UHGV virus genome: UHGV-0211833
DNA from: a virus
Direction: 5' to 3' (one strand)
DNA length: 40,118 nt
A program made the position numbers and the translations under genes. Shown here piece after piece: positions 2,311-22,995 of the stretch. The first letter of the stretch is position 1, and every line of letters starts with the position of its first letter. The notes under the pieces are model-generated. The model ran no database searches and had not been told where the DNA came from. It saw only the letters and a list, made by a program, of their open reading frames with translations.

Positions 2311-2573
2311 TTACAACTCACGACAACCACACGTTTTTGTGTTATCCTAAAAAGAGAGCAAATAAAATTATTTGCAACTCTATTATAACACATTGTTGTC
2401 CGTTTGTTGTCTTCAAACGCTGAAAACATTGATTAATAAGGCATCGTATAATTGATTTCAGATTAATTTGGAAACCGTATGAAACCGTAAAGAGCGATTT
2501 TATGCGGTTTTTGTGTTTTAGAAACATATAAAACCATATAAAACAATCAAATTGTTGTCTGTTTTGTTGTCTT
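2311..2573. other. attP region (arm-type and accessory-factor repeats)
   Basis: Pairs of TTGTTGTC direct repeats at 2393/2404 and 2552/2564, tandem GAAACCGTA (2471-2490) and AAAC(C)ATATA (2521-2544). Lies immediately downstream of the integrase. Core not pinpointed. Confidence 0.7.
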
Positions 2574-16468: not shown

Positions 16469-16957
16469 ATGAAATTTGTAGAAGCCGTAAACTGGGTTGA
16501 GAAAAAATACGGTGCGCAAGCGTTCGACCATTTGGAAGATTACGCTGAAGACGAAGCAGCGCAAATGATTTTGAGAGAACAGAAAAAGGGGCACACAAAG
16601 CAGAAGAAGAAATATGCAAGAGGCAAGGATCCAGGGCCGAAAGTATTTCGTAAAATGGTAGAAGACGGGTACAGCTATGTGGATATAGTGGCGGCAACGG
16701 GTTTGGGCATAACCACGGTCCAAGTCAAAGTTAAAAAGTATGGTTTAAGAGAGTTTTACCACAAAATGCATCCCGAAGTCAGAAGGTCCGACGTCAAGGT
16801 ATTATGCATCAATCACACGACAGGTGAGCAAAGAGAATATGAAACTATGGCAAGCGCCGAACGTGCCTTAGGCTTGTACCGTTGCACTTTGTCGCAAAAT
16901 ATGAAAAATGGAAAAACTTTTGTGCATGGCGACTGGGAAATCAGGAGAAAACAGTGA
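16469..16957 (+). CDS. HTH plus NUMOD1-like DNA-binding protein
   Basis: GYSYVDIVAATGLGITTV HTH, V.CIN..TGE...YETMASAERALG. Confidence 0.65.
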   Translation: MKFVEAVNWVEKKYGAQAFDHLEDYAEDEAAQMILREQKKGHTKQKKKYARGKDPGPKVFRKMVEDGYSYVDIVAATGLGITTVQVKVKKYGLREFYHKMHPEVRRSDVKVLCINHTTGEQREYETMASAERALGLYRCTLSQNMKNGKTFVHGDWEIRRKQ

Positions 16958-17700
16958 GTGAAAGACTTATAGACATTGAAGATGGCTTGATAAAGCCTTT
17001 ACTGGCTCTTCTCTTAAGAGACAAGACGACAGGCGAAAATATAATTTGGGCTACTGACACGCATCCTGTTTTTATGGATGAAAAAGACATCTTGCTGCAT
17101 AGCGAAGCGATAAGGCCAAGGGTTGAAAAATCTTTAGATGAGCAAAAGACGAGGACGAAGAAGAAGGCAGAAGTCTTTACACCTACCTGGGTATGCAATC
17201 AAATGATTGACAATATCGACAAAACAGCAAAGCGAAAGACGTGGAAAGAATATGTTGATTCGAGAGTGCTGGAAATCACTTGCGGCGAAGCACCTTTTCT
17301 CGTACAGAGATACGATACCGTTACAGGGGAACCAATACCTTTAAAAGACAGGGCAGGGCTTCTTGACCGCAAACTGAAAGCCATCGGCAAAAACACATGC
17401 ACAAGAAAAGAATGGGTTGAATGGGCGATCAGGGCGTTTGAATCGTCATACGGTTACGAGTATCAAGGCGACAATCTTCTTATAGCAAGGATCAACTTGC
17501 TGCTAACGTTTGTTGACTACTATAAAGATCGTTGGGGAGAAGACCCAGACAAAATACTTTTGCGGCTCATCACAAATAGAATCGTATGGAACGTGTGGCA
17601 GATGGACGGGTTAAAGAACACAATCCCATTTAGAGAAGACAGATGCAGAATACGTGATTGGCGCAAACGCAAAACGGTTATTTTTATGGAGGAACAGTGA
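16954..17700 (+). CDS. Partial (SAM-binding half) N6-adenine methyltransferase, 'restriction endonuclease subunit M'-like
   Basis: LL.DKTT..NIIWATD, KAEVFTP.W.C..M (motif X), LEITCGEAP (motif I), YGYEYQGDNLLIAR. No NPPY motif. Confidence 0.7.
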   Translation: MSERLIDIEDGLIKPLLALLLRDKTTGENIIWATDTHPVFMDEKDILLHSEAIRPRVEKSLDEQKTRTKKKAEVFTPTWVCNQMIDNIDKTAKRKTWKEYVDSRVLEITCGEAPFLVQRYDTVTGEPIPLKDRAGLLDRKLKAIGKNTCTRKEWVEWAIRAFESSYGYEYQGDNLLIARINLLLTFVDYYKDRWGEDPDKILLRLITNRIVWNVWQMDGLKNTIPFREDRCRIRDWRKRKTVIFMEEQ

Positions 17701-17720
17701 GTGATCTTGTTTGGGAGACA

Positions 17721-17870
17721 TGGTAAAATATAGGTATAGAAAAATTACCTTTTATTTTTTATAAATTATTTATTGGTGTAACCCCGTAAAACTGATCTTT
17801 GAGTGAGTGAGTGGTTAATCGGGCGATTGATTGACGAAAACATGGCTTAAAACAAGCCATGTTTTTTATT
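17721..17870 (+). ncRNA. Putative small RNA unit, copy 1 (extended -10, conserved core, terminator)
   Basis: TGGTAAAAT, TCTTTGAGTGAGTGAGTGGTT core, AAAACATGGCTT/AAGCCATGTTTT terminator. Duplicated at 18837-18995. Confidence 0.5.
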
Positions 17871-18842: not shown

Positions 18843-18995
18843 AATATAACTAAATTAAATAAAATTTAAAACACAAAAATTCTTTTTATTGTTATTAGTG
18901 GAACCTTGTCAAACTGGTCTTTGAGTGAGTGAGTGGTTGATCGGGTTTTGATTGATAAAAAAACACGGCCTGTTTTAAGGACCGTGTTTTTTATT
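18837..18995 (+). ncRNA. Putative small RNA unit, copy 2
   Basis: TGGTAAAAT, identical 21-nt core at 18918-18938, AAAACACGG/CCGTGTTTT terminator. Confidence 0.5.
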
Positions 18996-19010
18996 TTCCT
19001 TGTTTTTCGC

Positions 19011-19314
19011 TTTCTTTCAGGATTTCTGATTTTGAATTTTTGGATTTCAGATTTCCTAATTTTGAATTTTGGATTTTCTGATTTTAAAAAATGGTTCCTC
19101 CTGGGCGCCGATTATCGAAATCAGAAGCGGCGATTATCAGTATTAGTTTTATACTTTTCCTTTTATTCTTTTTTATTCTTTTTCTTTTTTATTTTATTTT
19201 TTGCCGTCTTGAAATGCTGCACAAAAAATGCAAAATTTTTCATTTTTTGAATTCCTGATTTTGAAAAATAGGCTTGACGAGCTTGTAAAAAGCCAATTTA
19301 GAAGCGGCGATTAT
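19011..19314. repeat. T-tract-rich degenerate repeat region
   Basis: Repeated GATTT(C/T)TGATTTTGAATTTT-like units, AGAAGCGGCGATTAT at 19123 and 19300. Confidence 0.7.
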
Positions 19315-19451: not shown

Positions 19452-19673
19452 TTACAGAGCTTTTAACTTTTCATCGATTGCATCCCTCAACGCTTGCAGG
19501 TCTTCCCGATAGCGGTCAACACCGACTGCAGCTACTGCCTCAACAGCTTTAGCTGTGGTCATGCGTGCAAAAGCACGGGCGGCCGATTTCTGTTTTCTGT
19601 AATACACTTGCTCGGGGTTGCTGGCATCGTATTTCTGTACTGCTTTAAGTTGTGCTTCGCTTGTTTTTTTCAT
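19452..19673 (-). CDS. Small putative regulator (TSEAQ.KA..KY type), last gene of the leftward island
   Basis: 73 aa, AGGAG RBS, TSEAQLKAVQKY...KSAARAF...DL..L...I.EKL. Confidence 0.7.
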   Translation of the reverse strand: MKKTSEAQLKAVQKYDASNPEQVYYRKQKSAARAFARMTTAKAVEAVAAVGVDRYREDLQALRDAIDEKLKAL

Positions 19674-19691
19674 GATTATCTCTCCTTTTAC

Positions 19692-20621
19692 TTACTTAAC
19701 TTTATGAATTGTTGTTGGCAGATCGTCAGGGGAACTCGCGTTAATGTAAACAGGTTCAATCCACTTCAGGATACGCTCACGATCTGCACTGTCTCGTTTT
19801 CCCGTCCAAAAATGCGACCAGTGGCCACGTCTTAAATGCGGGCGGGGGCGTGCGTGCTGCTTATGATCGCCACCTTTGCGCTGCGTTTTTGCAGCGTATG
19901 AGCGATTACGCTTAATCGTGGCGCCTACACGTACCCCAACATCCCAACGTCTAACCGGGCACTTATCGGTTGCTTTCGGTGTCTTTCCGGGTTGTGTGGT
20001 GGTCGGTCTGCGCTCTTGCACGTCAGCGTTAGCAGCACATAGGTATAACAACAACTGCACTATCAGTTTAGATGCTCTTGTCGTATTGCTATTTGGCGAG
20101 CGGACAAACTCAGCGCCATAATGTCGGGCTTCTTCAATACTTAGTTTTTCGTTTTCTTCAAACGTTCTAGCATCCAAGTGAATATCCAACTGCCCGAACG
20201 CCAGAGTGTCTACGGACACAAACAGGCACTTGATCACGTCTTCTTTTTTCAGGGCAAAGAATCCGTCCATGGGTGTGTCTTGCGGGCCTGTCAGTTTAAC
20301 GGGCATGCAGATGTATGCACACTTAAACGGCAGGCGTTTCAACGTGTCGCTGGCAACCGCTAAATCGGTTTGATCGCTCAAAGTCTCAAATAGTGTCTTG
20401 TCAAAGTCGTATATAGCTTTGGCATCTTTTAGCCATGCGCCCTCAAAAACGTTGGTAAGCGCATAGCCCAACGCATTAAAGCCTTCAGCATTGGTACACT
20501 CTTTTATGATATCCAGTGATTGTTGGACGTCTTGCACTGTTGACAATTCCGGCACAACGGCTAACAGTTTATCATACCGCTTTTGCAACTCAAGCGGTAT
20601 GAGTTTTCGTTTCCTCTTCAT
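19692..20621 (-). CDS. AcrVA2/FinQ-family protein (anti-CRISPR homolog)
   Basis: Collinear motifs GAW....IY.FD, LP..C.Y, GFFA, LLYLC....D, G.R.G, RPH.RRGHW..FW.G and W..PV.IN match AcrVA2 as recalled. Confidence 0.8.
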   Translation of the reverse strand: MKRKRKLIPLELQKRYDKLLAVVPELSTVQDVQQSLDIIKECTNAEGFNALGYALTNVFEGAWLKDAKAIYDFDKTLFETLSDQTDLAVASDTLKRLPFKCAYICMPVKLTGPQDTPMDGFFALKKEDVIKCLFVSVDTLAFGQLDIHLDARTFEENEKLSIEEARHYGAEFVRSPNSNTTRASKLIVQLLLYLCAANADVQERRPTTTQPGKTPKATDKCPVRRWDVGVRVGATIKRNRSYAAKTQRKGGDHKQHARPRPHLRRGHWSHFWTGKRDSADRERILKWIEPVYINASSPDDLPTTIHKVK

Positions 20622-20682
20622 TTAAATCACCTCTTACGCTTGTTTTTCCGGATCCGTCAGTTCCTTCGACCGTGATAAGCAT
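20590..20682 (-). pseudogene. Truncated thymidylate-kinase-like P-loop fragment
   Basis: GAGG RBS plus MLITVEGTDGSGKTSV, then runs out of frame into the acr start. Confidence 0.55.
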
Positions 20683-20707
20683 TTTTTAAAACCTCGTTTC
20701 TTTAATG

Positions 20708-20740
20708 AAAAAGGCTAGCCGCACATGACCAGCCTTTTTT
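20708..20740. terminator. Bidirectional terminator
   Basis: AAAAAGGCT...AGCCTTTTTT. Confidence 0.65.
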
Positions 20741-20754
20741 AATCGTGTTTTTTC

Positions 20755-20997
20755 TTAGCCTTCAATGTATTTAGAATGGTTATAATCGTTACCATCTTCA
20801 TCAACCATGTAAAATTGATCTTCATCAGCGATTAACTCATCGATTGTAAGATTATATTCTTTGCTTTCACGTTTTAACATCTCTACATATTCTTTTTCAG
20901 GTATGATAACGCCCGTGTTGCGGTCTTTATAAAAAACAGTTGAGTCGATTTCGATGTTTGTTCCTTCATAGTATTTTTGTTCTTGTTCTTTTTTCAT
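20755..20997 (-). CDS. Small acidic hypothetical protein (Acr candidate)
   Basis: 80 aa, D/E rich, RBS present. Confidence 0.7.
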   Translation of the reverse strand: MKKEQEQKYYEGTNIEIDSTVFYKDRNTGVIIPEKEYVEMLKRESKEYNLTIDELIADEDQFYMVDEDGNDYNHSKYIEG

Positions 20998-21074
20998 GAT
21001 TCCTTACCTCTTGTCTTTCTTTTTTATTATCTTCCTTACAAGTATATAATAACACGGTATATAAGGGGCTATTT

Positions 21075-21152
21075 TTAATCTTCGTCTTTAAAAAACGGCA
21101 ACAACACACATAGCACGATTGCCGCCATTAGGTAGCCTGACAATTTAATCAT
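21075..21152 (-). CDS. 25-aa single-TM peptide
   Basis: MIKLSGYLMAAIVLCVLLPFFKDED, GAGG RBS, overlaps the upstream stop. Confidence 0.45.
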   Translation of the reverse strand: MIKLSGYLMAAIVLCVLLPFFKDED

Positions 21153-21906
21153 TATCGGCTTCCTCCTCTTCGTCTTCCTCGTATTCCCATAAATCAGCAA
21201 CCGGATCACCACCGGCTAAAAGTTTGTAGCGCATTTGATCATATGCATCGGCATCCGTCAAGCTTGCGAAGTGGCGCCCGTTTTCATCGTAAAAATCAAG
21301 CGTCTGTTCAACTGCGCTAGTTTCGATGCGGTAGTTGTCAAAATCAAAAAAGTTGCAGTAGTCCAGGATCGAACTTATTTCGGAAAGAAGCAGCTGTTCA
21401 TAAATGCAGCCTACACGAAGCGGGTCATCTCCCCAGTAGTGAGCACGGTTAAGCGTGACCGTCAACATATCATCTTTGTAGACGTACTCGCCGACTTTTA
21501 AATAAACTGATTCGTCTTCCAATTCGGCATAGACGTTTTTTTCATCAATCCCGATGTGAAGTTGTGAATCGATCGTTAATTTTTCTTCGGCTTCTTCTTC
21601 GGTCAGTGTTTCATAAACTGACTCAAAATGCGGATGCGGATTGAGCCAGTAGCCTTTTTCTTCGGCATCGTCTTCGTCGCCGATTTCGTCAATATCGAAG
21701 TTATCAATGAAGCCAGCTTTCAAGGCGTTTTCGAGAAGCTCCTTGATGTTGTCCCCGCCAAGATCTTCCCAATCGGCTCGGTTTTCCTCGCTGACGTGCA
21801 TCGTGCTGCCTGCATTCTCGCCTATGTCTTGCCATAAATCGCAAGCCTGATTCCATGTGTGCGCACCAAGAACTACGTTATTAACTTTGATTGCGTAATA
21901 TTTCAT
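21145..21906 (-). CDS. Extremely acidic hypothetical protein (DNA-mimic or Acr candidate)
   Basis: 253 aa dominated by D/E and aromatic residues, AGGAGG RBS, directly downstream of hammerhead 2. Confidence 0.8.
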   Translation of the reverse strand: MKYYAIKVNNVVLGAHTWNQACDLWQDIGENAGSTMHVSEENRADWEDLGGDNIKELLENALKAGFIDNFDIDEIGDEDDAEEKGYWLNPHPHFESVYETLTEEEAEEKLTIDSQLHIGIDEKNVYAELEDESVYLKVGEYVYKDDMLTVTLNRAHYWGDDPLRVGCIYEQLLLSEISSILDYCNFFDFDNYRIETSAVEQTLDFYDENGRHFASLTDADAYDQMRYKLLAGGDPVADLWEYEEDEEEEADND

Positions 21907-21940
21907 GCTGAAGACCTCCTAAAGTCTGTTTTAAATTCGC

Positions 21941-22004
21941 GGCCTGTCTCATCGGTGCAGGGTGGCCATGTCCTACAGACGGGGCATCAGAACCCCGTTT
22001 CGAC
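21941..22004 (-). ncRNA. Type II hammerhead ribozyme (CCGAUGA core variant)
   Basis: GUC-GAAA-CGGGG/CCCCG-UC^-UGUAGG/CCUGCA-CCGAUGA-GAC. Loop I UGGCC can pair with the 3' GGCCG (pseudoknot). Confidence 0.85.
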
Positions 22005-22414
22005 TAGTATTCAATGAATTTGATTTCGAGACTGATTTCAGCGTCAATTTCTTTTTCATTCCAAAGTTCGTTCACTTTGGAATTGGCCTCGTTGTAGCGA
22101 TCAAAGCGCCCAACCTCGTTGCAATTCTCATCTTCGACAACGAAGATAGGGCGGGCCTCGATGATCGGATCGCCTACATATCCATCTTTGCCGATCTCGT
22201 ACAGGGTATCATATGAGATCGTGTGCGTGGTTAACACACACATAGCATGTCGCTTGAACCAAGCTTTCACTTGGCCAAGTGTGCCGGTCGGCGTTGCCCA
22301 GTCCGAATCGCATTCATTGACCGGGTCATTAATGCGTCCTGCATCGAATTCCTCGAAAGAAACTGTAGTTGTTTCCATCATCAAATCTTCTTCACCGTAA
22401 ATCTTTTTCGTCAT
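22004..22414 (-). CDS. Acidic hypothetical protein (136 aa)
   Basis: Start re-placed at MTKKIYGEE behind AAGGAGG. Flanked by both hammerheads. Confidence 0.75.
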   Translation of the reverse strand: MTKKIYGEEDLMMETTTVSFEEFDAGRINDPVNECDSDWATPTGTLGQVKAWFKRHAMCVLTTHTISYDTLYEIGKDGYVGDPIIEARPIFVVEDENCNEVGRFDRYNEANSKVNELWNEKEIDAEISLEIKFIEY

Positions 22415-22431
22415 TTTAATTTTCCTCCTTA

Positions 22432-22492
22432 AGGCTATCTCATCAGTGCACGGCGCCTGTTCCGTACAGACGGGAATTTCTTCCCGTTTCGA
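22432..22492 (-). ncRNA. Type II hammerhead ribozyme (canonical core)
   Basis: UC-GAAA-CGGGAA/UUCCCG-UC^-UGUACGG/CCGUGCA-CUGAUGA-GA. Loop I AGGC pairs with the 3' GCCU. Confidence 0.9.
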
Positions 22493-22496
22493 ATTT

Positions 22497-22526
22497 ATTA
22501 TAAGTCTTGACTTAGACAAATGTCAA
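22497..22526 (-). promoter_or_regulatory. Sigma-A promoter with spacer operator
   Basis: TTGACA-18-TATAAT, TAAGTCTTGACTTA at 22501-22514. Confidence 0.85.
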
Positions 22527-22535
22527 GCGCTTTTT

Positions 22536-22736
22536 TTAATTTGTTTTAGGAAAGTTCCTATATCCCTGAATGTACCAGGTAGCGTCGCCATCCTTTTTAT
22601 AGGCTGACCAGTTCCAGCCGTAAATACCGGCATTGTAGCCGACTTCTTTATATCCTTCGGCGAAGGTGTCTACCGTGAGGGGCAAGGTTACAACCTTACC
22701 GATGATGTCTTTTCTTGTTAACTTTGCTTTCTTCAT
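22536..22736 (-). CDS. Small hypothetical protein
   Basis: 66 aa, AAAGGAAG RBS, own promoter, GYNAGIYGWNW motif. Confidence 0.75.
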   Translation of the reverse strand: MKKAKLTRKDIIGKVVTLPLTVDTFAEGYKEVGYNAGIYGWNWSAYKKDGDATWYIQGYRNFPKTN

Positions 22737-22764
22737 TTTGATTACTTCCTTTCTTTATGACTTA

Positions 22765-22793
22765 AGTATAAGTCGCGACTTAGATAATATCAA
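22765..22793 (-). promoter_or_regulatory. Sigma-A promoter with spacer operator
   Basis: TTGATA-17-TATACT, TAAGTCGCGACTTA at 22769-22782. Confidence 0.85.
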
Positions 22794-22800
22794 CTACTTT

Positions 22801-22995
22801 TTAATTTTTTTCATCGTCTCGGTCGATGACGAGTAAAGCGATGATTATAGCGGCTAGCATGATCAGCCGACCTTGACTCGTGCGCAACAGATAGAAATTC
22901 AACTGTCCGATGTACGCCATCAGGCAATCAAATATAAATTTGAGAAGGTAGCCAAAGTTAACTGCCTTTTCGATTACGAACCACTTCAGACTCAT
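22801..22995 (-). CDS. Small membrane protein
   Basis: 64 aa, hydrophobic C-terminal helix, AAAGGAAG RBS, own promoter. Confidence 0.6.
   Translation of the reverse strand: MSLKWFVIEKAVNFGYLLKFIFDCLMAYIGQLNFYLLRTSQGRLIMLAAIIIALLVIDRDDEKN

Follow-up and report, generated by a model that had tools for sequence, protein, structure and literature searches.

What a homologue of AcrVA2, the Cas12a-directed protein of a Moraxella bovoculi prophage, may be silencing in a phage of lactobacilli is the question raised by the minus-strand gene at 19692–20621 of UHGV-0211833. The whole 40,118-nt stretch of DNA analysed here is referred to as the window. The original prediction placed the gene in the AcrVA2/FinQ family, its phage in the Lactobacillaceae, and its target possibly outside Cas12a.

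Family, fold and key residues

The gene starts at an ATG and encodes a 309-residue protein whose membership of the AcrVA2/FinQ family is near certain. A phmmer search of the PDB retrieved AcrVA2 (PDB 7CI1) at E 4.5e-12 over query residues 59–295, with the runner-up at E 0.66, and a profile of 54 homologues matched AcrVA2 residues 6–319 at E 7e-37, the sole match at E ≤ 1. An AlphaFold model built from 150 sequences (pLDDT 88.6, pTM 0.89) superimposes on AcrVA2 (PDB 7CI2) with a Z score of 18.4 and an rmsd of 4.4 over 254 residues; the next entry scores Z 3.3. This model replaced an earlier, weaker one, built from 27 close sequences and unresolved at the C-terminus, with which Foldseek had matched the AcrVA2 fold at E 4e-9. 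The profile and structural comparisons with AcrVA2 that had been proposed as a check are both significant and bear out the family assignment. Annotated FinQ proteins, the fertility inhibitors of IncI/IncF plasmids, were matched by tblastn at E 3e-12 to 4e-13 with ~25% identity over residues 67–305. The protein also matches PHROG 6160 (E 9e-33), and PF26125 is precomputed on 120 of 120 homologues among the matches listed; a scan of local copies of Pfam and NCBIfam with the protein itself gave no match. The family comprises 3,955 clusters at 50% identity (E ≤ 0.001). A search of species-representative genomes found no relative (0/401 Lactobacillaceae genomes, run without a positive control), so the gene family appears there as strain-level phage cargo.

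The functional residues of AcrVA2 are retained. Mutation of W79, D89, H286, R288 or H291 impairs AcrVA2 function (bioRxiv 10.1101/2022.11.29.518452), and all five are kept here as W63, D74, H262, R264 and H267 (phmmer alignment; the PDB chain is offset by one residue). The predicted RPHxRRGHW motif is present as RPHLRRGHW at residues 260–268, and all 150 aligned sequences have R264 and H267. Of the three AcrVA2 acids that bind the Cas12a 620–636 peptide, only two align to acids here (D83, D115); the same study describes that site as dispensable.

The protein thus shares with AcrVA2 the whole fold, the five residue equivalents, a length of ~310–320 residues and the setting of a prophage accessory gene. 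It differs in its ~18–20% identity, in a host genus with no detected Cas12a, in having neither AcrVA1 nor a known Aca beside it, and in two features discussed below, namely three interchangeable N-terminal alleles within one phage population and an upstream ORF derived from tmk. With FinQ it has in common the C-terminal motif and a target other than Cas12a, the latter likely for our protein, but it is phage-borne, belongs to a Gram-positive host and has no tra region nearby. The third comparator, ORF32 of Lactobacillus phage JCL1032 (PF26125/phrog_6160 family), is 31% identical and sits between lysin and attP, as do most relatives of our gene; the upstream region and downstream gene differ, and ORF32 is unannotated.

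Head alleles exchanged on a common C-terminal part

Close homologues fall into three N-terminal classes, A, B and C, with the window protein in class A. The allele-variable N-terminal and middle domains (res. 1–186; 20064–20621, minus strand) are predicted, from AcrVA2 and FinQ, to act as a target-recognition head. The conserved C-terminal part (res. 256–309; 19695–19856, minus strand) carries H262, R264 and H267 and is common to alleles A and B by alignment. Over the N-terminal ~190 residues, the alleles share 42–54% nucleotide identity. Among 27 aligned proteins, identity to the window protein across residues 106–186 is 78–89% in A, 42–44% in B and 23–29% in C; across residues 256–309 the corresponding ranges are 87–96%, 89–98% and 69–93%. 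Mean nucleotide identities follow the same pattern, with 86% within A, 84% within B, 54% between A and B and 42% between A and C for residues 29–186, and 82% within A, 84% within B and 83% between A and B for residues 256–309.

Codon trees were computed for 30 full-length genes (20 A, 7 B, 3 C), omitting L010, L079, L080, L084, L086, L087, L088 and L092 as truncated, frameshifted or duplicate. The tree of residues 29–186 contains three deep clades, and B forms a single clade with support 98/96. In the tree of residues 192–309, A and B are interleaved, and B as a clade is rejected for the C-terminal part (p-AU 7e-6; 30 genes, residues 256–309). Class C is set apart over residues 192–255 and nears A and B only in the last 54 residues (73–74%). 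Because the N-terminal tree splits A from B and the C-terminal tree mixes them, recombination has joined different heads to a common tail, and alleles A and B have been exchanged. The exchange is visible in individual phages: the window is 88–94% identical to L083/L084 on both flanks of the gene, yet the N-terminal part of the L083/L084 gene is allele B. Two prophages on one contig carry alleles B and C.

What the heads do can be read by analogy. The AcrVA2 study reports that the C-terminal His/Arg residues are required for decay and dispensable for binding, and that FinQ and AcrVA2 have the C-terminus in common while their N-termini have diverged (bioRxiv 10.1101/2022.11.29.518452). An editorial on the 2026 version adds that the C-terminal part of AcrVA2 associates with ribosomes (PMC13728456). 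The freely recombining C-terminus common to A and B suggests that the swappable N-termini are target-recognition heads. Since the AcrVA2 His/Arg residues serve decay and not binding, and FinQ diverges at its N-terminus, the head alleles likely aim at different targets. Alternatively, discrete alleles could result if old lineages mixed and their 3′ ends became homogenised, with the target unchanged. Neither head swapping nor an upstream target copy was found described for the AcrVA2 family in the literature searched.

Phage cassette, host and probable target

The window is a temperate phage genome with integrase, CI, holin, GH25 lysin and terminase genes, which place the AcrVA2-like gene on a mobile element. 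The gene belongs to a minus-strand accessory cassette (19452–22995) between an ArpU-like regulator and the HNH/terminase genes. It occupies either of two phage positions; most relatives carry it after the lysin, adjoining att, a slot left vacant in the window. The cassette is highly mosaic among relatives. Directly downstream lies a putative 73-residue partner gene (19452–19673, minus strand; phrog_2277), a homologue of which stands 3′ of the AcrVA2-like gene in relatives; a 66–90-residue partner occupies this position in 31 of 32 assessable loci, with three of 35 loci cut off. The partner is a candidate regulator or cofactor. Upstream are an 80-residue acidic accessory gene (20755–20997, minus strand) and the rest of the cassette (21075–22995, minus strand), consisting of 25-, 253-, 171-, 66- and 64-residue ORFs, four of which were compared with known families without a match. 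A scan for promoters gave 10 sites against 7.9 expected, so only the perfect sigma-70 consensus (12/12) at 22526–22497 on the minus strand stands out. A terminator-like hairpin (20707–20739, minus strand) separates the 80-residue gene from the leader described below. No known Acr or Aca was matched among the cassette neighbours tested by family and PDB searches; three window neighbours and one from a relative compared with the PDB, and two with the Atlas, gave nothing usable.

Several further features of these cassettes were noted. The partner gene occurs in at least four sequence types, which do not track the head allele. A terminator-like hairpin stands 20–80 nt before the start of nearly every copy of the AcrVA2-like gene, with scant room for a promoter, and expression may depend on read-through or processing. 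The 25-residue mini-ORF (21075–21152, minus strand) is conserved, hydrophobic and acidic at its tail, and it adjoins the AcrVA2-like gene upstream in L012, L013, L072–L074, L077, L083, L084 and L087; it may be type I toxin-like or another membrane peptide. The acidic ORFs at 20755–20997, 21145–21906 and 22004–22519 (minus strand) are shuffled modules common to the cassettes of relatives, gave no Pfam, PHROG or PDB match, and are anti-defence candidates. Several post-lysin cassettes (L003:5632–5937 and many relatives) have in common a 101-residue gene, without a PDB match, immediately before the AcrVA2-like gene. Between arpU and the cassette, positions 18933–19300 form a long, AT-rich, non-coding-looking stretch containing short repeated T-rich units, which partly recurs at 17695–17870 in alignments with relatives. 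A 272-residue ORF on the plus strand (16882–17700) weakly resembles DNA methyltransferases (E 0.02 in Pfam, E 0.002 in PHROG) and is possibly an orphan or truncated methylase.

The host is most likely Ligilactobacillus ruminis, a gut bacterium, because the flanks of related prophages match strain DSM 20403. Specifically, the L001 flank contains DinG at 98% identity to DSM 20403; L084, which matches the window at 91–99.6% identity in three long blocks, lies on the contig that also carries L089, and the flank of L089 matches DSM 20403 at 98.5% identity over 4,654 nt. The expectation of a Lactobacillaceae host is borne out through these relatives and narrowed to one species. An attB for the attP core of the window was found in none of three genomes.

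Cas12a was found in none of 33 Ligilactobacillus genomes (species representatives, searched without a positive control), and Cas9 was found in 13 of the 33. For 91 L. ruminis genomes surveyed elsewhere, the CRISPR types listed are only I-B, I-C, I-E, II-A and III-A, with II-A commonest and no type V (PMC7016997). These counts support the prediction on this point, and the target is likely a protein other than Cas12a. The idea is not new, since the AcrVA2 study already infers non-Cas12a targets for a family spread beyond Cas12a hosts; for ~1,800 orthologues, among which sequences of these phages may already be included, it leaves open both the targets in bacteria lacking Cas12a and the part that sets specificity (bioRxiv 10.1101/2022.11.29.518452). 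A true anti-Cas12a protein, kept for rare Cas12a-bearing hosts, would account for the full-length homology to AcrVA2, and the genus search covered species representatives only and had no positive control. We nevertheless regard this as very improbable given the genus-wide count, the type list of the survey (PMC7016997), the low identity to AcrVA2, and the presence of three divergent heads within one host species.

Judged by eye from N-termini and the order of the genes, the type strain has one type I-C and one type III-A locus. None of 26 I-C spacers matches the window (best 24/35 nt), the III-A array being mostly masked, and Racr-like solitary repeats, even in their best matches, did not resemble the I-C and III-A repeats more than shuffled sequences did. 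An LSKT-like motif, [SG]K[TS], is absent from the first 45 residues of all 17 type-strain cas N-termini and of the two in L076.

Separately, relatives carrying the att arm of the window (2360–2470) integrate beside CRISPR loci (host G002:C30:136225 and 108328). L002 (7390–7514) and L071 (6390–7016) are integrated between the III-A array and cas6, with the same core in L005, L082 and L091, and the cas6–csm5 block is missing from the L071 flank. L076 (6377–7103) is integrated upstream of a type I cas3 locus that is I-E-like there and I-C in the type strain. Other relatives (L003:7321, L007:7351 and the end of L014; L001:7449 and L089/L090:6427) are integrated at the 5′ end of a competence gene, which we take to be comGC-like, or just before dinG. 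Near the related prophage of the type strain, L034:8104–10686 holds a 557-residue ORF whose N-terminus carries a Walker A-like motif, and then a methylase-like ORF; this may be a defence pair and would exemplify a P-loop-type candidate target.

The reading we favour, and consider probable on the whole, is that of a putative co-translational silencer made by the lysogen that lowers the level of a defence or rival-element protein. We infer its expression, mechanism, target class and allele-dependent specificity as follows. The lysogen would express the accessory cassette; the variable N-terminal head would bind one target protein at its emerging N-terminus, and the conserved HxRxxH C-terminus, engaging the ribosome, would set off decay of the target's mRNA. 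The level of the target would then fall, whether a host defence gene product (from a I-C, I-E, II-A or III-A cas locus, or another) or a product of a rival element, and the three head alleles would aim at different targets. That the protein acts instead as a weapon between elements has the precedent of FinQ. The silenced gene would then belong not to host defence but to a superinfecting phage, to a conjugative element or to the lytic programme of the prophage itself. In orientation and placement the AcrVA2-like gene resembles a lysogenic accessory gene, mostly adjoining att, and co-resident prophages carry different alleles, which fits such a role. We judge it a minority possibility, given that a [LG]x?[SG]K[TS] motif is missing from the first 40 residues of every window ORF and that the small acidic neighbours appear to resemble an anti-defence cluster more.

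An upstream ORF derived from tmk

Just upstream of the AcrVA2-like gene, a nucleotide match revealed a 50-bp segment (20634–20683, minus strand) copied, at 45/50 nt (90%), from the 5′ end of the L. ruminis thymidylate kinase gene, tmk, and spanning its codons 4–19 with the P-loop. At E 4e-13 this is the best match among the 33 genus genomes, the next having 82% identity. The first 16 codons of a 30-codon, putatively translated ORF with its own RBS (20590–20682, minus strand) are tmk-like, and this leader ends inside the AcrVA2-like gene, whose first 32 nt it reads in a different frame. The leader begins MLITVEGTDGSGKTSV, compared with MFITFEGTDGSGKTSV in host Tmk. Five changes separate leader and tmk, three of them synonymous and located in the P-loop, the other two conservative and hydrophobic. 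The 11 P-loop codons thus carry three changes, all synonymous (p 0.018 by simulation, for a region picked after the fact), and the overall substitution pattern is unremarkable (p 0.14–0.15 by simulation). Because none of 118 Tmk proteins carrying the motif share the two hydrophobic changes, the changes in the leader probably arose in the phage.

The leader occurs in six of 35 loci (the window, L001, L002, L004, L014 and L071, of which L002 and L071 are near-duplicates), with identical sequence and always together with allele A and the 80-residue gene. Its core has four matches among viral contigs, all of them these leaders, and comparison with phage and plasmid collections gave chance-level matches only. 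L003 has an identical head (100% nt, residues 29–186) without the leader.

We lean towards the leader being a recombination leftover, such as a captured scrap, the remnant of a phage tmk since deleted, or an attachment site surviving as a relic. Its overlap with the RBS would at most reduce translation, making it an attenuator. Its single origin and patchy distribution, the mosaic cassette and the leaderless L003 head, which marks it as dispensable, are what such a leftover would produce. Less easily explained are the reading frame and P-loop, intact despite five substitutions, and the two hydrophobic changes unmatched in Tmk proteins. In addition, a close-relative scan of viral contigs found no full tmk as donor, and the att sites known are located 3′ of the gene, with none at the leader.

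A more pointed possibility makes the leader a tag of the target or a decoy, with allele A recognising an N-terminal P-loop peptide of GSGKT type, in Tmk or in a defence NTPase. The close match to L. ruminis tmk, an ATG behind an RBS placed directly on the start of the gene, and the purely synonymous P-loop changes are consistent with this, and K13–T14 of the leader occupies the position of K14–T15 recognised in Cas12a. A chain of 30 residues is too short to clear the ribosome tunnel and expose the motif, so decay in cis by the leader is unlikely. According to the AcrVA2 study, Cas12a residues 1–30 bind AcrVA2 and trigger no decay, as a decoy would (bioRxiv 10.1101/2022.11.29.518452). We consider it doubtful that allele A recognises such a peptide, and similarly doubtful that the 30-residue leader acts by binding and damping the protein or by adjusting its own expression: the leader is confined to identical copies in six loci, all allele A, the same head lacks it in L003, the overall substitution pattern is ordinary, and Tmk is essential.

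A low-power survey of 62 viral homologues, in which 15 short ORFs with an RBS from 34 distinct upstream regions were compared with 3,851 N-termini (host proteomes being absent), found no comparable copy before distant homologues, which counts against a tag or decoy. Its one match was read as a truncated fragment of the homologous ORF that sister loci have upstream; the window leader was recovered as a positive control, and 0/320 shuffles matched. No tmk-type copy was found in three other L. ruminis phage cassettes either, and inspection by eye of the regions before finQ (one plasmid examined), Mcat4, JCL1032 and H1 revealed no evident leader-type ORF.

At its most ambitious, the tag or decoy reading extends to the whole family: AcrVA2-like proteins would be reprogrammable silencers whose heads are swapped on a fixed ribosome-engaging tail, some loci carrying an upstream copy of the target peptide as decoy or tag, with allele A seeing a Tmk-type P-loop peptide. 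We offer this as speculation that is rather unlikely to hold in full.

The family assignment is ordinary in itself, and the modular architecture and odd leader add to it. Should the leader name the target, it would provide a rule for finding targets across the family. Should the heads set the target, the family would provide a platform, ready for use, with which genes of Gram-positive bacteria could be silenced in a protein-specific way. The swapping of three heads offers a natural handle on the target question of the AcrVA2 family; with three natural heads on a common tail in one culturable commensal, both the targets and the part that sets specificity are directly testable.
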